From: Verrucomicrobiota bacterium
Lineage (GTDB): Bacteria > Verrucomicrobiota > Verrucomicrobiia > Limisphaerales > UBA11358
NCBI GenBank assembly: GCA_049517655.1
Contig: JBEKRQ010000001.1
Coordinates: 749,379 to 813,378 of the forward strand
Length of the DNA: 64,000 nucleotides
Direction: 5' to 3'
Part shown: piece after piece, positions 94-58,488 of the stretch
How positions within the stretch are numbered: the first letter of the stretch is position 1
How the letters are laid out: each line of letters begins with the position of its first letter
The notes under the pieces: generated by a model
What the model saw: only the letters and a program-made list of their open reading frames with translations
What the model was told of the DNA's origin: nothing
The model's database searches: none
Translations under genes and position numbers: made by a program

Positions 94-3000
94 TCAGGCT
101 CGCGTTACTAATTGCCGCAATACGCAAGGCAAAATGCCACCGTGCCGGTAGTAATCAATTTCAACCGGCGTATCGATGCGGCAACGGACCGTCACGTTTT
201 CCACTTTACCGTTTTTGCGCGTGATTTTAAGCGTGAGGTCCTGCTGCGGTTTCAGGTTCACGCCAAGGCCGACAACGTCATAGGTTTCAGTTCCGTCCAG
301 CTTCAATGCCCGTGCGGAAACGCCTTCCTTGAATTGCAACGGCAGCACGCCCATGCCGACAAGGTTGCTGCGGTGAATGCGTTCAAAACTCTGCGCGACA
401 ACAACTTTCACTCCGAGCAACGCCGTGCCTTTCGCCGCCCAATCGCGCGAGCTGCCCGCGCCGTATTCTTGGCCGGCAATCACAACCAGCGGCGTCCTGC
501 TCTTCGCGTATTCCATTGCTGCGTCGTAAATCGGCATTTTGTTTGGGAGGGACGGCGTGCCGCCGTCCCCGGATTTGGGACTGCAACATGCAGTCCCCCC
601 CATGAACAACGTATTTCCGCCTTCTTCACCGGCGAGCATGAGGTTCTTGATACGCACATTGGCGAACGTGCCGCGTGTCATCACGCGGTCGTTGCCGCGG
701 CGAGAGCCGTAGCTGTTGAAGTCCGCTGGCTGAACGCCGTGCTCAATCAGGTGCTTGCCGGCTGGTGAAGTTTCCTTGATGGAACCGGCGGGCGAAATGT
801 GGTCGGTCGTAATACTGTCACCGAAAATGGCCAGTGCCCGCGCGCCTTTGATTTCGCGGATTTCACCGGGCTTCATTGAGAAGTTCTCGAAGAACGGCGG
901 TTCCTGGATGTAAGTGGATTCGCGGTCCCATTCATAGACGTTGCCGGCGCTCGACTGAATTTCATTCCACTTTGGATTCTGCGCGACGAAATCCTTGTAA
1001 AGTTTGCGGAACACATCCGGTTGCAATGCGGCCTGCATGAGGTCGCAAATCTCGCGCTGGGTTGGCCAAAGGTCCTTCAGGTAAACCGCCGTGCCGTTTT
1101 TGTCTTTGCCAATCGGTTCATTGGCCATGTCAATGTCCACCCGCCCGGCGAGCGCGAACGCGACGACCAGCGGCGGCGACATGAGGAAATTCGCCTTGAT
1201 GCTCTGGTGGATGCGCGCCTCAAAGTTGCGGTTTCCAGACGATACCGAAGCGGCGATCAGATTGTGTTTATGAATCGCATCCTCAATCGGCGCGGCGAGC
1301 GGACCGGAATTACCGATGCATGTCGTGCAGCCATAACCGACGAGATTGAAACCGAGTTTGTCGAGATACGGCTGCAGCCCGGTCTTGTTCAAATAATCGG
1401 TGACGACGCGCGAACCGGGCGCAAGTGAAGCCTTCACGAGTGGATTCACACTGAGTCCGCGTTCGACCGCTTTTTTTGCAAGCAAGCCGGCGGCGAGCAT
1501 TACGCTGGGATTGCTTGTGTTCGTGCAACTCGTGATGGCGGCAATCAAAACCGAACCATTACGAATTTCGCCTTCCCCCGTCCGTACCGGAGTTGTGACC
1601 GAATCGGGTGTCGGACGATTGTTTGCCATTTCGAGTTCTGTGAACGGATTTGTGTTTTGCGATTTTGCGGCCTGCAATGAAACCGGTTCCTGACTGCCGC
1701 CACCGATCGCAGATTTGCCATTGGCGGAAACGGAAAATATTTTTGCCAAATCCCCAGGCGGTCTGCCAAAGCCATTTTCCGCCACGGATTTGCTGAATGC
1801 TGCGGCGAAATTTTCCTTCAGCTTCGGCAATTCAATTTTGTCCTGCGGGCGTTTCGGTCCGGCGACACTCGGCACGACAGCGCCGAGATCGAGTTCCAAT
1901 TCACGCGAATAGGCAATGTCGCCTTTTTTCGGAATGCCAAACAAGCCCTGCGCCTTGTAATAATTTTCGTAAAGCCTGCAATGTTCCACGCTACGGCCGG
2001 TGGCATGGAGATAATTCACGCACTCGGTGTCAATCGGGAAAAAGCCCATCGTCGCGCCGTATTCGGGCGCCATGTTGGCAATGGTCGCGCGGTCCACCAC
2101 CGGCAACGCCGCCGCGCCCGGCCCAAAAAATTCAACGAATTTGCCGACCACCTTCGCCTTGCGCAGCATTTGCGTGACGGTGAGCGCAAGGTCGGTGGCG
2201 GTAACGCCTTCACGCAACGAGCCGGTCAGGTGCACGCCGACGACATCCGGCGTGAGAAAATAAACCGGCTGGCCGAGCATTCCGGCTTCGGCTTCAATGC
2301 CCCCAACGCCCCAGCCCACGATGCCCAAGCCGTTGATCATCGTCGTGTGCGAATCCGTGCCGACAAGGGTGTCGGGATAAAAGAGTTGAGAGTTGTCGGT
2401 TGAGGGTTGAGCGAGCACGCCCTTGGCGAGGTATTCCAGATTGACCTGGTGGACGATGCCAATGCCGGGTGGAACGACTTTGAACGTGTCGAACGCCTGC
2501 ATGCCCCACTTGAGAAATTGGTAACGCTCGCGGTTGCGTTGGAATTCAATTTCGAGATTGCGTTGGAACGCGTCAGTCGTGCCGTTCACATCCACTTGCA
2601 CCGAATGATCAACCACGAGGTCCACCGGAACGAGTGGCTCGATGATTTTCGCGTTTTTGCCCAGCCGCTGCACCACCGAACGCATCGCCGCCAAATCCAC
2701 CAGTAATGGCACGCCGGTAAAGTCCTGCAGCACGATGCGCGCGACGATAAACGGAATTTCCTCTGTGCGGGTTTCGGTCGGCTTCCAGTTCGCCAGCGCG
2801 CGGACGTTTTGTTCAGTCACTTTTTTACCATCACAGTTCCGCAACACCGATTCGAGCACGAGGCGTATGGAGACCGGCAATTTGGAAATCGGCCCGATGC
2901 CGGCCTTTTCCAACGCGGGCAATGAATAAAACCGGCCGGGCTTCCCGCCGCCGGGATCAAATTCCTGAAGCGTGCCAAATAAATTATGCGGTGTGCTCAT
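94..3000 (-). CDS. acnA: aconitate hydratase A (AcnA/IRP type)
   Basis: 968-aa ORF with aconitase signatures [21 protein letters not shown] and [10 protein letters not shown]. Carries two repeat-derived in-frame inserts (549-597, 2385-2412). Confidence 0.95.
549..597. repeat. twin GGGAC...GTCCC hairpin module, in frame inside acnA
   Basis: gggacggcg-tgc-cgccgtccc (549-569) and gggactgca-aca-tgcagtccc (577-597). Encodes [19 protein letters not shown] in a loop that is about 16 aa shorter in E. coli AcnA as I recall it. Confidence 0.8.
2385..2412. repeat. heptamer array GTTGAGA-type (4 units) inside acnA
   Basis: gttgaga gttgtcg gttgagg gttgagc; encodes [10 protein letters not shown]. The same heptamer occurs in recJ. 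Confidence 0.8.
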
Positions 3001-12914: not shown

Positions 12915-12969
12915 GTGGCACAGGCCTCCGGCCTGTGAACCCTAAACACAGATCAGAGATCTGTGCCAC
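12915..12969. repeat. family-C double-hairpin element (GTGGCACAG...CTGTGCCAC), intergenic copy
   Basis: Hairpins cacaggcc-tccg-gcctgtg and cacagatc-agagatctgtg, with outer gtggcacag / ctgtgccac complementarity. Confidence 0.85.
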
Positions 12970-17444: not shown

Positions 17445-18296
17445 TTACGTGCTCGCGCTGGTGTAACGGCGGATGGAGAAGCGCCAGAACCATTCGGAAA
17501 TGAGCGCCCAAATAACACCCAAGCCGAACAGCGCCGACAAAGCGGCGGGCGATGTCAATTTGTCCGCCAGCACGCGCACGGGCACGTTGGACACCAGCAA
17601 CACCGGCAAGGCGAAGGTGAACACGGCCTTGAACACGCCGCGAAACGCTTCATCCGGCATCCGCGCGATGTTGAACAGATTGTAGTAGCCCCACACGATG
17701 CCTTGCGCGCGCACGGTCCAAAAACTCACCGAGGCAAGCATGAACATGAGCGAGTAATGCACCAAAAGCCCGACAACGCACAAAGCGGCAAAGACGAGCA
17801 ACTGCGCGGTGGTTGGGTGCAAATGTAATTTCCCTGCCGCAAAAACCATGACGCACACGGCGAACGCGGCGTTGGCAAATGACGGCAGGTCCACCTGTCG
17901 CATTGAAACGAGGAAACGCGTGTTGACCGGCAGCAGCAGCAGGAAATCCATTTTGCCCGTGCGGACGAGTTCGGAGAGGTTCGTGCAGTTCACGAGAAAG
18001 AACGCCTGGTAAATTTCCTGGATAAAATTGCTCGTGCCGGTGAGTAGCACCACCTGCCACACCGTCCACGTGCCGACGGTGCTGGTTTGACTGAAAAGAA
18101 CGCCGACAAAGGCGAGTTGCAGTCCGAACCACAGCAATTCGACGACAATCCAAAGAATAAAGTTGCCCTTGAACGACATTTCGCGCGTCACGGAAGTTTT
18201 CCACAACGCAGCGTAAATGGTGAGATAACGAGCGACGCCGGATACGAGTTGCGTGACGCCCGTTTCTGCCTTCTGTCTTCTGCCTTCTGCCTTCAT
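17445..18296 (-). CDS. ABC-2 type transporter permease (PF06182-like), second of pair
   Basis: Multi-TM protein typical of ABC-2 family permeases. Start moved to MKAEGRR, immediately after the stop of the upstream permease. The first codons are encoded by the heptamer array 18264-18294. Confidence 0.6.
   Translation of the reverse strand: MKAEGRRQKAETGVTQLVSGVARYLTIYAALWKTSVTREMSFKGNFILWIVVELLWFGLQLAFVGVLFSQTSTVGTWTVWQVVLLTGTSNFIQEIYQAFFLVNCTNLSELVRTGKMDFLLLLPVNTRFLVSMRQVDLPSFANAAFAVCVMVFAAGKLHLHPTTAQLLVFAALCVVGLLVHYSLMFMLASVSFWTVRAQGIVWGYYNLFNIARMPDEAFRGVFKAVFTFALPVLLVSNVPVRVLADKLTSPAALSALFGLGVIWALISEWFWRFSIRRYTSAST
18264..18294. repeat. heptamer array TTCTGCC x4
   Basis: ttctgcc ttctgtc ttctgcc ttctgcc at the junction of the two ABC-2 permease genes. 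Encodes MKAEGRRQKAE. Confidence 0.85.
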
Positions 18297-25456: not shown

Positions 25457-25475
25457 CACAGGCCTCTGGCCTGTG
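25457..25475. repeat. family-C half element (single hairpin) directly after the aspC stop
   Basis: cacaggcc-tct-ggcctgtg. Same hairpin as the first half of 12915-12969. No U-tract. Confidence 0.75.
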
Positions 25476-25510
25476 AAATTCAACAAGGTAGGAACGCGCG
25501 TCCCTCTGCC

Positions 25511-31649: not shown

Positions 31650-34157
31650 TCAGATCTTCGCCGGCGCCACGTTTTGCATCGTCACTTGCGACGCGCCAAT
31701 ATTCGGGCGTTCGCCTTTGTGCCACCACCACACGAACGCGCTGGCGATGTAGATGCTCGAATATGTGCCGGTGATGATGCCGATGAGGAATGTAAACGCG
31801 AAGTCGTTGATGACGCCGCCGCCGAAAAGATAGAGCGACATCGTGGCCAAAAACACCGTGCCGCTGGTGATCAGCGTTCGGCTCAAGGTCTGATTCACCG
31901 CTTGATTGATGATTTCCTTGAACGAGCCGCGCACGCCGAGTTTCAGGTCTTCGCGGATGCGGTCAAAAATCACGATGGTGTCATTGGTGGAGAAGCCGAT
32001 GATGGTCAGAACCGCCGCAACGACTGTAGCGTTGAATTCGCGGCCCGAAACGCCGTTGGCAATGCAGTAACAGCCAATGGTCATAAACACGTCGTGAATG
32101 ACCGCGACGACCGCGCCGACAGCGAACGAAAATTCGTAACGGAACGCGACATAAACCAAAATGCCGAAGAGCGACAGCAAACAGGCAACAATGGCCGATT
32201 GCAGAATCTCCCTGCCAACAACCGCGCCGACGCGCTGCTGGCTGCCGACTTTGAAGTTCGCCTGCGGAAATTTGTCGGCGAGCGCCTGTTGGACTTTTTC
32301 GGCGGAGCCGGGTAAGGTTGTCACGCGGAGCGTTTCAGTGCCGCCGGCCACGTCCTTTTGATATTGGATTTGCGAATCCTTTTCACCGGTTTGCACGAGC
32401 ACGGCGCGGATCTGTTCCACGTCAACTCGTTGCTGGAAACTGAATGTCGTGCTGTCACCGCCCATAAAGTCCACTCCGAACACCTTTGAACCGCGATGAT
32501 AGCCGTAGATCAAGCCGACGAGAATAATCACCCATGACAAAACGAATGCGGGCCTAGCCAGTTTCATGAAATCGAGCTTGGTGGCGCGAATGAGATGGAA
32601 CATCCGGAGCGATTTGATCCAATCGTGGTCGAGCAGCCAGTTGAAAATCAGCCGCGTCACCACGAGCGCGGTGAACAAACTTGCCGCCACACCAATGGTC
32701 AGTGTCACGCCGAAACCTTTGACTTCACCGGTGCCCATGAAAATCAGGATGACCGAGGCAATGAGCGTGGTGACGTGTGAATCGAAAATCGTGCCGAACG
32801 CCCGGGCGTAACCGGCGGCGATTGCGCCCCGCAGGGATTTGCCCTTGGCCAATTCCTCGCGGATGCGTTCGTAAATCAGCACGTTCGCGTCCACCGCCAT
32901 GCCGACGGTGAGCACCACGCCCGCGATGCCCGGCAAGGTGAGCGTCGTGCCGATGGAACACATGACGCCGAGCAAAATGATGATGTTCGTGACCAGCGCG
33001 ATGTTTGCCACAACGCCCGCGAGCAAGTAATAGCACAGCATGAACGCGGAAACCAAAACAACGCCGGCGATGGACGCGCGAACACCGCTGCGAATTGAGT
33101 CTCTGCCGAGAGTTGGGTCAACGTCGCTGGAATAGACAGGAATCAACGGGGCGCGCAGCGGATTTTGGAGGACGTTCGCCAATTCCAGCGCTGCTTGGAT
33201 GGTATAGCGTCCCGTGATCTGACCGTTGCCGGTTTCAATCGGACTCTGGATATTTGGCGCTGAATACAACTGGCCGTCCAAAACGATGGCCAGCCGGTGG
33301 TTAACGTTGTTGCGGGTGACGTCGGCAAACCTTTTTGCGCCGTTGTCATTGAGCGTGAAATCAATTTGCGGTTCCCCCAAATTGCCGCGCACCACCATCG
33401 CACTTTTTATGATGTCGCCGGCCAGGCCATTCTCCGGCTTTTTCTTTACGATGACCTGCTCAATTCTCGGCGGACCATTTGGTTGCAGTTCCACGTGCTT
33501 GAGCAGTTCATAACCCGGCGGAATCGGTTCATTGTTATTGATGATTTCATCGCTGTCATCCTTCACCATCCGGAATTCAAGATACGCGGCTTTTTGGATT
33601 TGTTCCTTGGCGCTTTCCTTGTCGGCCTCGGACAGGCCGGGCAACTGAATCAAAATGCGATTACCGCCCGCCGGTTGAATGACCGGCTCGGCCACGCCAA
33701 AACGGTCAATGCGTTTGCGCAACACCTCAACCGCCTGCGAAAGCGCCCCGCCCGCATCCGACGGATTGGACAGCTTGTTCGTTTCCATCTCGACGAGAAA
33801 GGACGTGCCGCCCTGCAAATCGAGACCAAGTTTGATGCGTCCGGATGCATCGCGCTGAAGCTGGTTCAAAATGAACGTCGTTGGATACAACTCGTTCTCC
33901 GCGTTGACGAACGGAAAGTAGGGCCGAATGTCATTCGTGCCGATGGCTCCCTGTAAATTGGCGAACTCACGGTCGGGGCGCGCCTTTTGCAACGGTTCAA
34001 GCCGTTGCAAAATGTCCTTGAACGCGGCGTCCCGCTTGACCGCGCGCGATGAAAATTGCTGCACCAGATCGCGCGACGTCGGCGGGTAAGTCTGATAAAG
34101 CGACCAGCAAATGATGAAGACAACAAAGACGAATTTCCAGAAATCGTTTTTTTTCAT
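31650..34157 (-). CDS. secDF: protein translocase subunit SecDF (fused)
   Basis: About 835 aa with SecD and SecF halves, each with RND-like TM bundles and periplasmic domains. Start moved to MKKNDFWKF just downstream of yajC. Confidence 0.9.
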   Translation of the reverse strand: MKKNDFWKFVFVVFIICWSLYQTYPPTSRDLVQQFSSRAVKRDAAFKDILQRLEPLQKARPDREFANLQGAIGTNDIRPYFPFVNAENELYPTTFILNQLQRDASGRIKLGLDLQGGTSFLVEMETNKLSNPSDAGGALSQAVEVLRKRIDRFGVAEPVIQPAGGNRILIQLPGLSEADKESAKEQIQKAAYLEFRMVKDDSDEIINNNEPIPPGYELLKHVELQPNGPPRIEQVIVKKKPENGLAGDIIKSAMVVRGNLGEPQIDFTLNDNGAKRFADVTRNNVNHRLAIVLDGQLYSAPNIQSPIETGNGQITGRYTIQAALELANVLQNPLRAPLIPVYSSDVDPTLGRDSIRSGVRASIAGVVLVSAFMLCYYLLAGVVANIALVTNIIILLGVMCSIGTTLTLPGIAGVVLTVGMAVDANVLIYERIREELAKGKSLRGAIAAGYARAFGTIFDSHVTTLIASVILIFMGTGEVKGFGVTLTIGVAASLFTALVVTRLIFNWLLDHDWIKSLRMFHLIRATKLDFMKLARPAFVLSWVIILVGLIYGYHRGSKVFGVDFMGGDSTTFSFQQRVDVEQIRAVLVQTGEKDSQIQYQKDVAGGTETLRVTTLPGSAEKVQQALADKFPQANFKVGSQQRVGAVVGREILQSAIVACLLSLFGILVYVAFRYEFSFAVGAVVAVIHDVFMTIGCYCIANGVSGREFNATVVAAVLTIIGFSTNDTIVIFDRIREDLKLGVRGSFKEIINQAVNQTLSRTLITSGTVFLATMSLYLFGGGVINDFAFTFLIGIITGTYSSIYIASAFVWWWHKGERPNIGASQVTMQNVAPAKI

Positions 34158-34164
34158 TGTCAGC

Positions 34165-34515
34165 CTACGATTCAGTCGTGCCGCCGGATTCAATAATTTC
34201 CACCACTGAAGACTTGGTGATTTCCATTTTGGCGTCAGCCGACCGGAGTGAAACAGTCTTGTCCTTCACGGTGATGACAATGCCGACGATGCCGCCGGCT
34301 GTGACCACCTTGTCGCCCGATTTGAGGTTTTTGAGCAATGCCGCGTGCCGGGCGCGCTGCTGCTGTTGTGGCCGAAACAGGAGGAAATACATCATTACCC
34401 CCATCAAAACCAACAAGATAAGGGGGCTGCCAAAGAGAGCTTGGAAGCCTGTTGGCTGTTGTGGTTGTCCGGATTGCGGCGATGCCGCCTGTGCCAGAAT
34501 TTCGTTCAAGTGCAT
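34165..34515 (-). CDS. yajC: preprotein translocase subunit YajC
   Basis: Single TM followed by LKSGDKVVTAGGIVGIV (YajC signature). Lies upstream of secDF. Confidence 0.85.
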   Translation of the reverse strand: MHLNEILAQAASPQSGQPQQPTGFQALFGSPLILLVLMGVMMYFLLFRPQQQQRARHAALLKNLKSGDKVVTAGGIVGIVITVKDKTVSLRSADAKMEITKSSVVEIIESGGTTES

Positions 34516-34596
34516 AAATTGAAAAATGGGTGTTCACTTTATGAAAGCAGGCGCATCGGGGCAAGCGTTTTGGCTGCCGAAATTGCTATAATTTCA

Positions 34597-36423
34597 CTAT
34601 TTTAAAGTTTCAACTTTAGCTTCCGGCTCGACCCACTTGTTATGTTCCTTGATAAGGTCAACGAGTCGTTCCACAGCTTCGGCTTCGGGGATGTTGAACT
34701 TGATCGCCTGCTTGCCGACGTAAAGGTTGATCTTGCCGGGCGCGCCGCCAACGTATCCGAAGTCGGCATCTGCCATTTCACCCGGGCCGTTCACGATGCA
34801 GCCCATGATGGCGATTTTAACACCCTTGAGATGCTCCGTCCGAGCCTTGATGCGAGCCATCACGGTCTGCAAGTTGAACAGCGTCCGCCCGCACGACGGG
34901 CACACCACGTAATCGGTCTTGAACGAACGGCAGCCCGCTGCCTGCAAAATATTGTAAGCCAGCCGCAGCGATTGTCCGCTGTCGGACTCCCCGCGAATCA
35001 AAATCGCATCGCCAATGCCGTCCGCCAGCAGCGAACCGATTACAACGGACGCGCGCAGCAAGACGATTTTGGGTTCCAGTGGCACAGACCTCTGGTCTGT
35101 GTTCGCCCTTTCATTCACAGGCTGGAAGCCTGTGCCACATAAACAATCCTTGAGTAGAATCGGATTGTTGCGACCAAGTCTCTTCAATTTCGCCACGAGC
35201 AGACGGAATGCAGTAATCGCGGGTAAATTCACACCATCTTTTACAGTCACGAGTTGCGTGTCACTGTTAATGTTGAAATCCTTTGTTGGGTCGAGTTCCG
35301 CAACATTCAAGTCTTCATAGACTGCCTCCGGTTTCACGTCGTCCCTCAGGCGAATCTTCGGAGTAACCTTGTCCCACGTGGCGCGAGTGACGACGACGCG
35401 GATGAGCTGTTCGCCGCCGCACTTGAAATTTTCGCTTGGAGAAATTCCCGGCGTTTTGCGACGCTCGAAGTGGAAGGGGTCGAACGGAAATTCCGAATTC
35501 GGAATTCGGAATTCGGAATTCGACAGTTTGGGAATTTGCGCCAGCAAATCGCGGCAGACCTCGACTTCGCGCGGCGAATCTTCCGTGAGTGAAACTCGGA
35601 TCGTGTCGCCCAACCCGTCGCACAGCAACGAGCCGATGCCGATGGCGGATTTGATGCGGCCGTCCTCGCCCCCGCCCGCCTCGGTCACACCCAGGTGGAT
35701 CGGATAATTCCAGTCCGGCCCTTCCTGTTCCAGCCGCGCGACGAGCAGCCGATAACATTCGATCATCACCTTGGGATTGCTCGCTTTCATCGAGAATTTG
35801 AAGTTGTGGAAATCGTGCATGCGGCAGATGCGGGCGAATTCCAACGCGCTCTCGACCATGCCAAGCGGCGTATCACCGTAACGGTTCATGATGCGGTCGG
35901 AAAGCGAGCCGTGGTTCGTGCCGATGCGCAACGCGCGCTTCAGGCGTTTGCACTCGATGACCAGAGGCGTGAATTTTTCCTCAATGCGCTTTAATTCGGC
36001 GGCGTATTGCCCATCGGTGTATTCCTTGCCGGCAAATTTCTTGGAATCGGCGTAGTTGCCCGGATTGACACGCACGACTTCGACCCATTTCACCGCTTCC
36101 ATCGCCGCCTCCGGTTTGAAATGGATGTCGGCGACGATAGGCACGTTGCAGCCGCGCTTGCGAAGCCCGGCGACAATGTTTTTGAGATTCGCCGCGTCTT
36201 TGACTGTCGGCGCGGTGATGCGGACGATCTGGCAGCCGACGGCGACGAGGTCGAGCGTTTGTTTCACGCACCCGGCGGTGTCCATCGTGTCGCATGTAAT
36301 CATGGACTGTATGACGACCGGATGGTCGCCACCAATGACGATGCCGCCGCGCGCCGGATCGCCGATGACAATTTCGCGGCTCTTCCGCCGCTGATGAAAA
36401 AATGGTGATTCGCAGTAGCGCAT
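34597..36423 (-). CDS. ispG: 4-hydroxy-3-methylbut-2-en-1-yl diphosphate synthase (long-form IspG/GcpE)
   Basis: TIM-barrel N-terminus (VIQSMITCDT) and C-terminal Fe-S motifs CPSCGRT and GCIVNGPGE. Start moved to MRYCESPFF directly after the rseP stop. Two repeat inserts (35079-35138, 35486-35521). Confidence 0.9.
   Translation of the reverse strand: MRYCESPFFHQRRKSREIVIGDPARGGIVIGGDHPVVIQSMITCDTMDTAGCVKQTLDLVAVGCQIVRITAPTVKDAANLKNIVAGLRKRGCNVPIVADIHFKPEAAMEAVKWVEVVRVNPGNYADSKKFAGKEYTDGQYAAELKRIEEKFTPLVIECKRLKRALRIGTNHGSLSDRIMNRYGDTPLGMVESALEFARICRMHDFHNFKFSMKASNPKVMIECYRLLVARLEQEGPDWNYPIHLGVTEAGGGEDGRIKSAIGIGSLLCDGLGDTIRVSLTEDSPREVEVCRDLLAQIPKLSNSEFRIPNSEFPFDPFHFERRKTPGISPSENFKCGGEQLIRVVVTRATWDKVTPKIRLRDDVKPEAVYEDLNVAELDPTKDFNINSDTQLVTVKDGVNLPAITAFRLLVAKLKRLGRNNPILLKDCLCGTGFQPVNERANTDQRSVPLEPKIVLLRASVVIGSLLADGIGDAILIRGESDSGQSLRLAYNILQAAGCRSFKTDYVVCPSCGRTLFNLQTVMARIKARTEHLKGVKIAIMGCIVNGPGEMADADFGYVGGAPGKINLYVGKQAIKFNIPEAEAVERLVDLIKEHNKWVEPEAKVETLK
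35079..35138. repeat. family-C double-hairpin element, 60 bp, in frame inside ispG
   Basis: The reverse complement aligns along its whole length with 12915-12969. Encodes GTGFQPVNERANTDQRSVPL. Confidence 0.9.
35486..35521. repeat. heptamer array GGAATTC x4-5 inside ispG
   Basis: ggaaattc cgaattc ggaattc ggaattc ggaattc, each unit carrying GAATTC. Encodes SNSEFRIPNSEFPF. Confidence 0.9.
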
Positions 36424-36427
36424 GAAA

Positions 36428-37813
36428 TTATCTGGCCGGCACCGGTACAGTTTCTGCGGGTGGCTGGGTTGTTTGTTCGATTTGCACGTTGTTATTGAAC
36501 ATCGCTCGGAACAGTGGAATCCGTTTGATGTCAAAGAACGAGACATAGAGCATGAACGAAATCACGAGCACCGCGAAGCAGGTCGTGGTGTATTCGACGA
36601 ACCTGATGTCCAAAGGCCGGCGGCGGATTTTTTCGATGATTGCCATCAAAATGTGGCCGCCGTCGAGCACGGGAACCGGCAGCAAATTGATAATTGCAAG
36701 GTTGATGTTGAGCAACACAAGAAAACTCAAGGCGAGGCGATAGTCCGCGTTCACATACACGGCAAGAATCGAAAGGATGCCCAATGGGCCGCTCAAATCG
36801 CTCGCTTTCACGCCTGTCTGCCGCGTATGAATGAGGGCCGAGATAACTCCGAAGGTTTGTTTTGTGACTTCCTGAATCTGGACCCACGGCAAAGGACCGG
36901 GCTTTTTCACCTCGTAGACACCTTCACTGAAAACGACGCCGATGCGGGCACGCTCGTTGACCGGGTCGTATTGCGGCGTTACGGTCGTGCTCCTTTTTTC
37001 ATTCTGACGGTTGAACACGATTATACACGGTTTGCCTTCGGATTTGGAAATGACCTCGATCATCCGGTCTCTGCTGGGGACCGGGATTCCATTTACCGAC
37101 AGGATTTTATCGCCACTCATCAAACCAGCCGCCGCTGCGGGCATGCCACTTTCGACGGCACCGACGACTGGATGCTCACGTGGATCGAGATCCAGCCACT
37201 TGCCACCCGCGGGGTTCGCCTTGGCCGTCAGATAGTAGGTTTTCTGTTCACCACTCCGTTTGATGACTACGGGAAAGACATTGGTCTTGGCCGTCATCGT
37301 CTCGAATACAACATCCTGCCAGGATTCCACCGCATGCCCGTTGACTATCACGATACGGTCGCCTTCCGTGATCCCAAGTTTTCCTTCCGGCGAATTCGGA
37401 TTGACTTCGCCAATCACCGACGGGTTTACCAATATGGGCAATCCGACAAAATAAATCACCGTGGCAATGGCGAAGGCGAACACGACGTTCATGAACGGTC
37501 CGGCAAAAGCAACAAGTATTTTGCGCAACGGAGGCGCAGGCGGGACCTTTTCGGTGGACTGACCTTCCAGCGCTTCGGAGGTAATCATTTGCGGCAGCTT
37601 CACAAAACCGCCGGCGGGAATCCAACGCAGCGAATATTCGACGCCGTTGCGCTTCCGACTGCAAATTTTTGGGCCAAACCCGACGGCAAATTCGTCCACT
37701 TTCATTCCCAGCCGGCGCGCGACCCAAAAATGGCCAAACTCATGGACAAAAATGGCCGCGCCAAACAACGCCAACACGGCGGCAATCACGTAAATGATGT
37801 TTAAAATGGTCAT
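36428..37813 (-). CDS. rseP: RIP zinc metalloprotease RseP (M50 with PDZ)
   Basis: Motifs HEFGHF and NLLPVPVLDGGH with PDZ segments between them. Start moved to MTILNIIYV. Confidence 0.9.
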   Translation of the reverse strand: MTILNIIYVIAAVLALFGAAIFVHEFGHFWVARRLGMKVDEFAVGFGPKICSRKRNGVEYSLRWIPAGGFVKLPQMITSEALEGQSTEKVPPAPPLRKILVAFAGPFMNVVFAFAIATVIYFVGLPILVNPSVIGEVNPNSPEGKLGITEGDRIVIVNGHAVESWQDVVFETMTAKTNVFPVVIKRSGEQKTYYLTAKANPAGGKWLDLDPREHPVVGAVESGMPAAAAGLMSGDKILSVNGIPVPSRDRMIEVISKSEGKPCIIVFNRQNEKRSTTVTPQYDPVNERARIGVVFSEGVYEVKKPGPLPWVQIQEVTKQTFGVISALIHTRQTGVKASDLSGPLGILSILAVYVNADYRLALSFLVLLNINLAIINLLPVPVLDGGHILMAIIEKIRRRPLDIRFVEYTTTCFAVLVISFMLYVSFFDIKRIPLFRAMFNNNVQIEQTTQPPAETVPVPAR

Positions 37814-55947: not shown

Positions 55948-58488
55948 TTACTCCTTCCTCCGCAAGGCAGCAACGACTTGTCCCAGTGCAATCCCGCCGT
56001 CGTTCGGCGGCACGCGCTGATGCCAATAGGGTCGAAAACCCTCCGCCAGCAAACGCCGCACCGCGCGCTCCGTCAAATAACGATTCTGAAAACAACCACC
56101 GGAAAGCACAACCCGGTTTTGGCCGACGCGTTTTGCAATGGCGATAATGGCCTCGACCAATGCGTTGTGAAATTTTGCGGAAATTTTGCCGACCGAAACA
56201 CCACGCTTAACATCCGCCAAAATGGCTTCAATCATCGGCGACCAATCCAAAATAATTGCGGATTGCGGACCCCGGCTTTGCCGGAGGCTTCGCCGAGGCG
56301 AGTTGTGGATTGCGAATTGGCTGCTAATCCGCAATTCATAAGCTTCCTCGGTTTCAACGCCCTCCAGCGCGAATTCCAGTTCCATCGCCGCCTGACCTTC
56401 AAATCGGATGTGCTGACGAAGATTGGTGAGTGAAGCGACGGCGTCGAAAAGCCGGCCCACACTGGAACAAAGCGGCGAATTCAATTTTTTGGCCAGCATT
56501 GTTTTCAGCGTGGTCATTTCTGCTGCCGAAAAAGCGGTGATTGTTGCCAGTTTTTCCTGTTTAAAAACTTTGTCGCCGGAAATTTCGTAAAGCAGTCCGA
56601 GCGCGGTTCGGCGCGGTTCCTTCACGGCCTTGTCGCCGCCCGGCAGATGGAACGGACGCAAATGCGCGACGCGTTCGATGTTGTTATCGGTGACGATAAA
56701 AAATTCGCCGCCCCAAATCGTGCCGTCCAAACCGTAACCTGTTCCGTCCCACGACACGCCGAGCATGGGCGGCGCGATTTCATTTTCGGCCATGCAGGAC
56801 AGGACGTGGGCGATGTGATGCTGGACGCCGACGTGGCACACTGTGGTGGGGTGCGATGCTCGCCTGGGCGAAGCCTCGCGAAGACCGGTCCCTATCGCGT
56901 CGTCGGCGGGCTGCGGAGAGCCCGCCCTACCTGTCATTTCATTGGCATACTTTGTCGAGAGATAATCCGGATGCAAATCGGCGGCAATGATTTGCGGCTC
57001 GGCCTCGTAAAGCTTTTCGAAATCCGCGATGACATGGCGGAAGGCGGCGTGCGCCTGTTCGGTTTCCAAATCACCGATGTGCTGGCTGATGAAAACCTGA
57101 TTACCGACAGAAAGCGCCACGGTGTTTTTTAAATGAGCGCCAACGGCCAATACAATTGCGGATTGCGGATTGCGGATTGCGGATTTCAGAGTTTTGGTGG
57201 GGCGAGCGTCCCCGCGAGCCGCATTCCGCATTCTGCATTCCACATTCTGCATTTGAATGGGCAGCGGTGCATAACCGCGGGCGCGGCGCAAAACCAATTC
57301 GCGGTCGAGCATCACGCGCACAACCGAATCGTCCACATGCCGGACAATGGGGCGGTTGTGGACCAAAAATAAATCCGCGATGCCGCCGAGACGCTCCAAG
57401 GCTTCATGTTCATCCGTGCAAATCGGCTCATCACTCAGGTTGCCGCTTGTGGCGATGACAGGAAAACCGAGTTCGGTCATCAACAGATGATGCAACGGCG
57501 TGTAAGGCAGCATCACGCCGAGATTAGGATTGCCGGGAGCCACCGAATTTACGATTTGCGATTTGCGATTTGCGATTTTCTTGAGCAGGACGATGGGTGC
57601 TTCGGATGAGTGCAACAGTCGCTTTTCCAAAGGCGAGACTTTGCATTCCACCTTGATGACCTTCAATGAAGGAAACATCAGCGCGAACGGTCTTTCTTCG
57701 CGATGTTTCCGCTCGCGTAAAAGTCGAACTGCTTTGTCGTTGCGGGTATCCGTCATCAGGTGAAACCCGCCGAGTCCCTTGACTGCGACGATTTGTCCCT
57801 GTCGGATGGCTTCGGCAGCAGCGAGCAAAGCGTCGGCATTCTGGAGTGCGCGGACATGTCCGCGCTTTGAAAGCGGCGACACGTCGCCGCATTCCCACAA
57901 TTCCAAATGCGGGCCGCAGACCGGACACGCATTTGGCTGCGCGTGAAAACGGCGGTCGCGCGGGTCATCGTATTCAGCCTGACATTGCGGACACATCGTG
58001 AACTTGCGCATCGAAGTGTTCGCGCGGTCGTAAGGCAGGGATTCAATGATGCTGAAGCGCGGGCCGCAATGGGTGCAATTGGTGAATGGATAACGGTAAC
58101 GACGATTGGCAGGATCAAAAACTTCGTGTAGACAATCCGGACAAGCGGCAATGTCCGGCAAAATCAGCGCGGTTTTGCCGCCGCCGGTTTGACTTTCGCG
58201 GATTTCAAATTTCTTGTAACCGGCGGCGTCAAGCCACGAGCTTTCGAGGCTTTGGATGAAACTGCGCGGCGGTTTCTCGGTGTCGAGACGGAGAAAAAAT
58301 TGTTCGAGCGCGGCGCGCGGACCTTCAACTTCGATGAAAACGCCTTGCGAAGAATTATTGACCCATCCGGAAAGGTGGAGTTCGGCGGCGAGGCGGAAGA
58401 CGAACGGGCGAAAGCCGACGCCCTGCACCGCGCCGCGAACGGAAAGTTTCAGGCGCGTGCATCGGCTGGTTTGGCTGGCTTTGTTCAC
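55948..58488 (-). CDS. hypF: carbamoyltransferase HypF
   Basis: Acylphosphatase domain (VRGAVQGVGFRPFV), two zinc-finger pairs (CPDC..CTHCGPR, CPQC..CPVCGP), and YrdC and Kae1-like domains. 846 aa, including about 100 aa of repeat-derived inserts. Confidence 0.95.
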   Translation of the reverse strand: MNKASQTSRCTRLKLSVRGAVQGVGFRPFVFRLAAELHLSGWVNNSSQGVFIEVEGPRAALEQFFLRLDTEKPPRSFIQSLESSWLDAAGYKKFEIRESQTGGGKTALILPDIAACPDCLHEVFDPANRRYRYPFTNCTHCGPRFSIIESLPYDRANTSMRKFTMCPQCQAEYDDPRDRRFHAQPNACPVCGPHLELWECGDVSPLSKRGHVRALQNADALLAAAEAIRQGQIVAVKGLGGFHLMTDTRNDKAVRLLRERKHREERPFALMFPSLKVIKVECKVSPLEKRLLHSSEAPIVLLKKIANRKSQIVNSVAPGNPNLGVMLPYTPLHHLLMTELGFPVIATSGNLSDEPICTDEHEALERLGGIADLFLVHNRPIVRHVDDSVVRVMLDRELVLRRARGYAPLPIQMQNVECRMRNAARGDARPTKTLKSAIRNPQSAIVLAVGAHLKNTVALSVGNQVFISQHIGDLETEQAHAAFRHVIADFEKLYEAEPQIIAADLHPDYLSTKYANEMTGRAGSPQPADDAIGTGLREASPRRASHPTTVCHVGVQHHIAHVLSCMAENEIAPPMLGVSWDGTGYGLDGTIWGGEFFIVTDNNIERVAHLRPFHLPGGDKAVKEPRRTALGLLYEISGDKVFKQEKLATITAFSAAEMTTLKTMLAKKLNSPLCSSVGRLFDAVASLTNLRQHIRFEGQAAMELEFALEGVETEEAYELRISSQFAIHNSPRRSLRQSRGPQSAIILDWSPMIEAILADVKRGVSVGKISAKFHNALVEAIIAIAKRVGQNRVVLSGGCFQNRYLTERAVRRLLAEGFRPYWHQRVPPNDGGIALGQVVAALRRKE
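56254..56336. repeat. ATTGCGG-type inverted-repeat element inside hypF
   Basis: aattgcggatt (56254-56264) pairs with aatccgcaatt (56326-56336). The core shares ctcgcctNggcgaagcctc with 56858-56878. Encodes ...SSQFAIHNSPRRSLRQSRGPQSAII.... Confidence 0.85.
56845..56931. repeat. family-A element, 87 bp, in frame inside hypF
   Basis: ggtggggtg...cccgccctacc. The reverse complement starts with the same 28 nt as the glnS copy. Encodes [29 protein letters not shown]. Confidence 0.9.
57154..57187. repeat. heptamer array ATTGCGG x4 inside hypF
   Basis: attgcgg units at 57155, 57162, 57169 and 57176. Confidence 0.9.
57196..57220. repeat. family-A half element inside hypF
   Basis: ggtggggcgagcgtccccgcgagcc, matching the left ends of 13434 and 55572. 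Confidence 0.75.
57221..57255. repeat. heptamer array GCATTCY x5 inside hypF
   Basis: gcattcc gcattct gcattcc acattct gcatttg. Confidence 0.85.
57553..57580. repeat. heptamer array GATTTGC x4 inside hypF
   Basis: gatttgc x3 plus gattttc. Encodes KIANRKSQIV. Confidence 0.9.

Follow-up and report, generated by a model that had tools for sequence, protein, structure and literature searches.

Palindromic and heptameric repeats as probable translated passengers in two loops of a verrucomicrobial three-domain IspG

The best described relatives of the repeat reported here are the GTAG-type repetitive extragenic palindromic (REP) sequences of Opitutus terrae (Di Nocera, De Gregorio & Rocco 2013; PMC3733652). 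According to that paper, O. terrae contains dozens of intragenic GTAG-19 REPs, which encode GTGVPPV, HGRDARAT, TGGTPVP and WHGRLAR or, as dimers, 20-aa peptides such as GTGVPPVMADQPHGRDARAT. Their host genes include uvrA, dnaE2, hypF and dxr; recB orthologues carry different REPs at about one site, and the tag is mutated to GTGG in most of the GTAG-20 elements. Here we describe a palindromic element resembling these REPs and a heptameric array, both of which lie in frame in ispG (gcpE), in a 64,000-nucleotide stretch of DNA from a Verrucomicrobiota bacterium of the Limisphaerales (contig JBEKRQ010000001.1, positions 749,379 to 813,378; the whole stretch is called the window). In-frame read-through of REPs has already been published for the Verrucomicrobia, and what is new is the host gene, the stem variant and a hot spot used by multiple families. 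The most original aspects are the hot-spot behaviour of two loops and the turnover of heptamer units at preserved length.

Three further systems invite comparison. In the systems formed by REP doublets forming hairpins (REPINs) and REP-associated tyrosine transposases (RAYTs; Bertels & Rainey 2011; Nunvar et al. 2010) two inverted REPs are separated by a short spacer and can fold as one long or two local hairpins, as in the window. Those systems possess a cognate RAYT (HUH Y1) flanked by REPs, whereas none so flanked was found in the 1.9 Mb studied here. The Rickettsia palindromic elements (RPEs) are, like the window element, palindromes that lie in frame in genes for functional proteins, at places predicted to be tolerated by the fold. 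They measure about 100-150 bp, are not related to it in sequence and occur in an alphaproteobacterium that is obligately intracellular, whereas the window element, at 55-60 bp, works like an RPE without being one. Finally, heptameric simple sequence repeats (SSRs) are known but poorly understood; they are reported to prefer about four units and to be under-represented within coding DNA (Xanthomonas, Nostoc; PMC4692102). Period 7 is over-represented in the short tandemly repeated repetitive (STRR) sequences of cyanobacteria, the GGGAATC arrays of Xanthomonas and Nostoc (PMC4692102) and the TAACTGA arrays of Beggiatoaceae (PMC4679880), as it is here, and in both cases the arrays are short (about 4-5 units) and inverted pairs occur. 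The arrays described here differ in that their units are diverse, about half lie in long open reading frames (ORFs), and several are in frame in conserved enzymes.

The best explanation of the locus as a whole, which we consider probable, is that a REP dimer and a heptamer array are passengers translated within tolerant loops of IspG's A* region. The palindromic element reads GTGG-CACAGACC-TCT-GGTCTGTG-(14 nt)-CACAGGCT-GGA-AGCCTGTG-CCAC, i.e. two hairpins in inverted orientation, whose stems measure 8 bp and whose loops measure 3 nt (Table 1). The initial annotation had described it as two CACAG...CTGTG hairpins with matching outer ends, translated as part of IspG. Both points were borne out: the 8-bp stems and the GTGG and CCAC ends were found, and the minus strand gives the peptide listed in Table 1 inside the 608-aa ORF. 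Five instances of the pattern CACAG-N9-CTGTG were counted in the window, where 0.03 would be expected (twice in ispG, twice at 12915-12969 and once at 25457-25475), the five hairpin units being dispersed over three loci, and GTGGCACAG occurs four times against 0.40 expected. As RNA, the IspG element folds with -31.4 kcal/mol (z -4.6 versus shuffled sequences), and every hairpin stretch in the window folds far better than its shuffles (z -3.6 to -5.1). A search of Rfam in E-value mode over positions 34000-37000 gave nothing but a chance miRNA-like match (E 0.12).

Table 1. Coordinates of ispG, the palindromic elements and the period-7 arrays in the window
Feature	Coordinates	Strand	Description
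ispG (gcpE) CDS, three-domain form	34597..36423	-	608 aa; ORF and Pfam GcpE, E=2e-121
REP dimer (REPIN-like double hairpin)	35079..35138		60 bp; outer tags GTGG...CCAC; minus-strand reading aa 429-449 CGTGFQPVNERANTDQRSVPL
Hairpin unit 1	35083..35101		8-bp stem CACAGACC/GGTCTGTG, loop TCT; DNA fold
Spacer between hairpins	35102..35115		14 nt, unconstrained; 7-8/15 positions match A-type orthologues (see text) versus 41-42/42 in the arms
Hairpin unit 2, inverted	35116..35134		stem CACAGGCT/AGCCTGTG, loop GGA; DNA fold
Period-7 array, 4.9 copies	35489..35522		coding-strand unit AATTCCG/GAATTCC; read as aa 301-313 SNSEFRIPNSEFP
Intergenic REP dimer	12915..12969		spacer of 9 nt; flanked by divergent GH10 and DUF4412 genes; RNA fold z -4.9 to -5.1
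Single REP hairpin	25457..25475		adjoins aminotransferase stop; matches arm 1 of the 12915 copy at 18/19 positions
Period-7 array AGAGTTG	2382..2411		weaker (78% matches); in frame, aconitase aa ~197-207; loop 5 aa longer than in IRP1
Period-7 array TTCTGCC	18264..18294		between, or N-terminal in, two ABC-2 permease genes
Period-7 array AGTCCAA	28690..28727		between recJ and ispD; kept at the orthologous position in L121
Period-7 array ATTGCGG	57155..57193		in frame, hypF linker between YrdC-like and Kae1-like domains
Period-7 array CCGCATT	57219..57253		inverted partner of the ATTGCGG array; hypF linker; ~25 aa inserted versus 3vth
Period-7 array ATTTGCG/ATTTACG	57547..57580		in frame, hypF aa 304-314; replaces a loop of similar length

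The element has the architecture of a REP dimer, or REPIN. It shares with the GTAG-type REPs the stem (8 bp, in a range of 6-9 bp), the 3-nt loop, a GTGG tag and an occurrence that is dispersed and predominantly extragenic. The published peptides correspond to the three reading frames of the window-type hairpin, and on this match, which is one of encoded peptides in PMC3733652, the window hairpin is the CACAGG version of GTAG-19. As in the GTAG-19/20 elements of O. terrae, a member of the same phylum, frames of the types GTGxxPV, HxxDACAT and TGxxPVP and the GTGG tag variant are found, single units occur beside inverted dimers, and the copies are mostly extragenic with many read-throughs in housekeeping genes, the dimers giving 20-30 aa. 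The published stem is CACGGG whereas that of the window is CACAGG, the CACGGG form being present in other IspG orthologues, and the host, a Limisphaerales-type metagenome-assembled genome (MAG), belongs to a different order. Moreover, IspG is absent from the GTAG host list of PMC3733652, and the recurrence of several families in one codon window is described in that paper for recB only, whereas here it concerns IspG.

A scan with the dimer pattern, in which each species was represented by one genome, returned at least 124 copies in at least 120 loci. The matches listed come from Limisphaerales, other Verrucomicrobiia, Chthoniobacter, Gemmata, Phycisphaerae, Pirellulales, Hydrogenedentota and some 'delta proteobacterium' MAGs. 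Among these listed copies the inner three stem pairs covary and are all formed in both arms in 111 of the 124, the loops have opposite polarity (the 5' arm has TCC/TCT and the 3' arm GGA/AGA), and the spacer measures 5-25 nt. Of these, 28% (35/124) are spanned by an ORF that extends for 80 aa or more on both sides, versus 63% of random 60-mers; the extragenic fraction is one derived from an ORF heuristic rather than from gene calls. The hairpin census in the ispG-centred loci (14 units per Mb) is sparse and biased by ispG itself, and was left unused for coding and intergenic rates.

The window IspG is matched by both Pfam families, GcpE and GcpE_C, and has the three-domain A-A*-B form. Its alignment to the two-domain IspGs in the PDB is restricted to residues 1-293 (the TIM-barrel domain A) and 487-592 (the C-terminal 4Fe-4S domain B), with the A* insert at ~294-486. 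In the literature A* is described as a third domain, resembling a TIM barrel and of unknown role, that occurs in the Verrucomicrobia. Both repeat sites are located in the A* region, outside the parts that can be aligned to solved IspGs, and among 70 sequences the domains A and B are mostly invariant, including the catalytic cysteines (C508, C511 and C542 are invariant). An AlphaFold model was built from these 70 sequences, with moderate confidence (mean predicted local distance difference test score, pLDDT, 64.5). In this model residues 303-317 and 429-449 are coil with a pLDDT below 50, the former flanked by helix 285-300 and strand 327-330, the latter by strand 422-425 and helix 451-467. The placement in a structure model that had been proposed with the initial annotation thus assigns both segments to low-confidence coil in A*, outside the catalytic domains. 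The repeat-encoded segments include FQPVNERANTDQR and NSEFRIPNSEF. The identical protein is on record from 61 contigs, every member of the 90%-identity cluster that covers the regions contains both peptides, and near-identical strain variants keep them; both repeats are fixed in the species. The gene order cdsA-dxr-rseP-ispG-yajC-secDF is kept in the orthologues.

Among the 120 best IspG homologues (83-88% identical, 587-641 aa, from Verrucomicrobiota/Limisphaerales MAGs) the differences in length cluster at exactly the two repeat positions. The hairpin position (site 2) is empty in 24 of 121 proteins, which have a 10-aa linker such as CINFEPVPLE, and holds the window-type element (TGFQPV...NTDQRSVP) in 36; at least seven further inserts are found in the remainder, so that site 2 is occupied by at least 8 palindromic families within 3-6 codons. 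At the DNA level (four syntenic orthologues and 80 metagenome loci, of which 67 were readable) 33 of the 67 loci are empty and 34 filled, and every insert family is palindromic. The families include CACGGG and GACAGG versions of the window hairpin, two that open with the canonical GTAG tag (GTAGCGTCGAGCC... and GTAGCCGCCGAGG...), CCCTCTCCCC/GGGGAGAGGG, TTGGAGTTCA/TGAACTCCAA and one with multiple hairpins. Their junctions are spread over 3-6 codons and do not fall on a single nucleotide. The closest orthologue of differing state (L121, 87% nucleotide identity) has an empty hairpin site, and parsimony gives empty as the root state. Fitch counts on a neighbour-joining tree (44 and 23 changes) are probably overestimates, the tree being poorly resolved, and the number of families minus one is the safe minimum. 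In more distant three-domain IspGs (136 representatives) the two segments range from 10 to 102 and from 3 to 107 aa, and neither peptide is conserved. With close orthologues empty and distant ones unconserved, the alignment suggested in the initial annotation indicates that these residues are not conserved IspG sequence.

The heptamer array lies at the A/A* junction (site 1), about 350 bp from the hairpin element. Tandem Repeats Finder reports 35489-35522 with period 7, 4.9 copies and 96% matches, in agreement with the earlier proposal of a heptamer array that is read in frame in IspG as SNSEFRIPNSEFP. At one extreme the orthologues have a non-repetitive linker of 39 nt at site 1 (SNSKVQISEKNFP), at the other near-perfect arrays, of at least six different units (AATTCCG, ACTTCGG, ACTGCGG, AACCTTC, AGCCTTC and CACGCAT), and some orthologues have GTAG-tagged palindromes inserted at this site. 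The linker has the same length (13 aa) in 115 of 186 sequences, the heptamer-type orthologues. The ±7-aa forms expected from slippage by three units were absent from the 186 sequences, and no length variants of the array were found among 6 cluster members, 61 contigs and the 115 heptamer-type orthologues. The unit thus changes in concert at a fixed length, possibly through transient misalignment or conversion-type homogenisation, or through repeated replacement.

In the window, period 7 is the only period between 4 and 12 with arrays of at least four copies (4-7 arrays), and 1.05 Mb of Limisphaerales-type DNA contains 38 period-7 arrays versus 0-5 for any other period of 4-12. These arrays measure 28-40 nt and have 4-6 copies. 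Twenty-eight are located outside the IspG site, and 15 of these are spanned by long ORFs (background about 71%); the published under-representation of heptameric SSRs in coding DNA is not seen for the arrays here. Five of the seven window arrays are in frame in conserved enzymes, i.e. IspG, aconitase and HypF (three arrays), and, when these are aligned to solved homologues, the arrays fall in variable loops or in a linker between domains. The units of 32 arrays could be sub-divided into 19 classes, the AAATCGT class comprising 8 of the 32, and pairs of units that differ by no more than one mismatch occur about four times as often as among random heptamers, hence the units are not random.

These observations can be combined into one scenario. 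The 60-bp element consists of two inverted REP hairpins (8-bp stem CACAGGNN, 3-nt loop, tags GTGG/CCAC) of a family of palindromic repeats that extends across the Verrucomicrobiota, the Planctomycetota and some other phyla, and a copy would have entered a permissive loop, leading from beta strand to alpha helix, in the A* insert domain, which is non-catalytic. Since its length is divisible by three and it has no stop codon, it would be translated as a disordered surface loop of about 20 aa. The GGAATTC array represents a second, lineage-wide class (period-7 arrays of ~28-40 nt), here in the 13-aa A/A* linker. Judged from the sequences, the peptides are presumably made and neutral. Spread would have been brought about by a RAYT-type HUH transposase or by recombination. 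The two loops probably gather repeats because an essential gene offers few tolerant places and because imprecise loss would be lethal, so that copies persist and are replaced rather than deleted. We favour a selection filter, in which only in-frame, stop-free insertions would survive; as can be seen from the three series of peptides, each of the three frames of the hairpin consensus is open.

Several findings weigh against this scenario. The AlphaFold model has only moderate confidence (mean pLDDT 64.5). When the window was compared with three orthologues in which this element is also present (A-type), 14 of 14 third codon positions were identical in the hairpin arms versus 0.60-0.63 gene-wide, which could mean a constraint on DNA or RNA structure. 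Occupation of the IspG loops is far denser than that of the flanking intergenic DNA, which random hits followed by selection do not obviously predict. Finally, RAYTs were sought among 9112 ORFs in 1.9 Mb, using phmmer with an approximate IS608 TnpA seed and subsequently jackhmmer. This search yielded two Y1_Tnp (IS200-like) genes (L067 and L198; Pfam E about 1e-25), but neither gene is flanked by CACAGG hairpins, no transposase was found adjoining such hairpins in the 1.9 Mb and none was present in the window. Since no transposase was found linked to the hairpins, it is their distribution from which we infer mobility.

It is possible, though doubtful, that the IspG loops form a targeted landing pad, the loop DNA attracting palindromes by its likeness to a REP half-site or through replacement of a resident palindrome. 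The crowding of at least 8 families at site 2 and about 9 at site 1 within a few codons is in line with this idea; the junctions differ by several nt between families, however, which points to a permissive window rather than to one cleavage site. Targeting would also account for the filling of 34 of the 67 loci at site 2 by families that are rare in ~1 Mb of flanking DNA, a comparison that is confounded by shared ancestry and faster intergenic loss and that is qualitative only, the strict-pattern counts outside ispG being low and palindromes being counted on both strands. There is a likeness between the empty allele GAA CCC GTG CCG CTG GAA (CCCGTGCCGCTGGAA) and the CACGGG hairpin at its 3' end (GCCCGTGCCAC), and ...PVPLE is kept in filled alleles, but the third positions of EPVP vary freely in the empty alleles, indicating that the resemblance is one of protein and not of DNA. 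The recB orthologues with different REPs at about one site, recorded in PMC3733652, would agree with a landing pad as well. A rather unlikely extension is that the period-7 arrays, instead of resulting from ordinary slippage, are written by a length-preserving, templated overwrite, in which copies of a single heptamer replace ~30-40 nt of resident DNA, the coding sequence of protein loops included, and that the IspG loops are true REP targets too.

A co-opted function, in which the mRNA hairpins (by translational pausing between the domains, or through mRNA stability) or the loop itself would serve IspG under selection, seems improbable. The comparison with the A-type orthologues speaks for it at first sight, in that gene-wide nucleotide identity is 0.81-0.82 and third-position identity 0.60-0.63, whereas the hairpin arms are identical at 41-42 of 42 positions, all 14 third positions included, and the spacer at 7-8 of 15. 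The strong structure in the mRNA sense and the fixation across 61 contigs would fit a function too. Nevertheless, the identity of the arms is explained equally well by independent insertion of the same family, and an independent or recent acquisition of the window copy is favoured over constraint; it fits the empty site of the nearest relative of the window. The element is missing from that relative, the closest of differing state, and from 33 of the 67 loci, unrelated palindromes substitute at site 2, and the peptide forms low-confidence coil in a domain of unknown role. In addition, one clade has fixed a stem-breaking change, CATAG replacing CACAG in one arm (NIDQRSVP), a sign of decay from which it follows that integrity of the hairpin is not strictly required. 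Tolerated passengers, rather than working parts of the enzyme, are thus the better fit for both repeats.

It is highly improbable that the heptamer array is a contingency (phase-variation) switch by which slippage toggles IspG. Gain or loss of one 7-nt unit would shift the frame, and heptamers do drive phase variation in some pathogens, but the change of unit at fixed length (the 13-aa linker without length variants in cluster members, contigs or orthologues) argues against a switch. IspG is moreover the only copy in the neighbourhood of the MEP (methylerythritol phosphate) pathway, so that the off state would presumably be lethal, and similar arrays are found in loops of HypF and aconitase. 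Finally, the reading as ordinary conserved IspG sequence, or as an assembly or annotation artefact with a chance likeness to repeats, has next to no probability even though NSEFRIPNSEF-like peptides recur in many 85%-identical orthologues, given the excess over shuffles, the empty sites and unrelated fillers in orthologues, which rule it out, the lack of conservation in distant IspGs, and the exact protein in 61 contigs from many independent assemblies with both peptides throughout the 90% cluster, which excludes an assembly artefact.

If both repeats are indeed passengers, two positions in the three-domain IspG accept 10-40 extra residues of arbitrary sequence and amount to a natural insertion scan, which may be useful for engineering this rate-limiting enzyme of the MEP pathway and for thinking about the A* domain. 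The re-entry of verrucomicrobial REP families into the same loops of an essential gene bears on targeting, and on the trapping of selfish DNA by coding regions. Low-complexity or odd peptides in proteomes of the Planctomycetes-Verrucomicrobia-Chlamydiae (PVC) group, such as GTGFQPV...TDQRSVP and NSEFRIPNSEF, would then be repeat read-through and not motifs. The in-frame heptamer arrays with unit turnover at fixed length are the least documented aspect.

The other hairpin copies in the window had been related to the IspG element in the initial annotation, which regarded the latter as the reverse complement of the intergenic element at 12915-12969. The orientation proved right (47/60 identical as reverse complement versus 41/60 directly), but the intergenic copy, with 55 nt and a 9-nt spacer, is not a 60-nt twin. 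The stem changes between the two are compensatory (GCC..GGC versus GCT..AGC; ATC..GAT versus ACC..GGT). A half copy was also said to follow the stop codon of aspC, and a single hairpin CACAGGCC-TCT-GGCCTGTG does begin at 25457, immediately downstream of the TAA with which a class I/II aminotransferase gene stops, although the gene name is unconfirmed beyond the family (PF00155). A T-run adjoins this hairpin on the minus strand only, so that the terminator-like form is directed at the convergent tsaD and not at the aminotransferase; the terminator assignment is a minus-strand pattern match alone, and shuffles yield 1.1 such sites. Judged from this arrangement, a hairpin unit in intergenic DNA could act like a 3' stem-loop. 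The claim that one module is used as coding sequence in one place and as a 3' hairpin in another is supported, both contexts having been found, but "used as" is too strong, as the findings agree better with a tolerated passenger than with a co-opted part. In 25457-25485 the minus-strand T-run originates from the last plus-strand codons of the aminotransferase (AAA AAA GTA A).

In-frame double hairpins were also observed outside IspG, in the Zn-binding domain of RecQ (L038 and L064, Verrucomicrobiota MAGs) and in RecG (L103). The CACAGG/CACGGG read-through concerns recQ at L038 1466-3736 (minus strand) and L064 2536-5016 (plus strand), and recG at L103 31-2379 (plus strand), where it falls between the helicase lobes. 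This echoes the leaning of intragenic REPs towards DNA-repair genes that has been published. One of the two Y1_Tnp genes (L198 8106-8630, minus strand), possibly a RAYT, is located ~4 kb from ispG and is flanked on both sides by CGTAGG...CATGTTTATAGCC; together with its flanks it may be a REPtron of another REP family in a related genome.

Additional observations were made on the heptamer arrays. In hypF (minus strand, 57155-57253) the two inverted arrays are 25 nt apart and jointly account for an insertion of ~25 aa in the interdomain linker, and site 1 of ispG in L128 is filled in an analogous way, by two inverted period-8 arrays, (GGAGCGTC)n...(CACGCTCC)n. The array between recJ and ispD has a counterpart in L121 (17559-17589) that shares both position and unit class (AAAGTCC) at 87% nucleotide identity with the window. 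In several loci, arrays of the type (CGTAAAT)4 recur in short intergenic spacers, for example after cdsA, ahead of dxr and in the spacer from secDF to terC. In Additional file 3 of PMC3733652 the intragenic REP entry for Oter_3011 ends in ...LNSQPSTLNSPEL, which has a periodicity of 7 aa and resembles VNLQPSTFNLQPS; by analogy, this hints at in-frame heptamer arrays in Opitutus too.

Two observations concern ispG itself. A third in-frame site was found in its A domain at ~aa 239, where (CAATCCG)4.7 is read as FNPQSAIRNPQS (L172 1404-1436; L174 10717-10749; L175 3286-3318); near this position the window IspG has extra residues relative to the Aquifex IspG. In three orthologous loci (L130 11858-12600; L143 11011-11741; L170 3574-4335) a cassette of ~650 bp is inserted at the extreme 3' end of ispG, with a direct duplication (~70 nt) of the gene's terminus enclosing it. 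It contains the gene of a PIN-domain protein (Pfam PF01850, E 4e-5) together with an ORF of 59 aa that has no family, and looks toxin-antitoxin-like. The cassette gives ispG a new C-terminus (…EPENKEMAMS), the old end being found as a remnant downstream.

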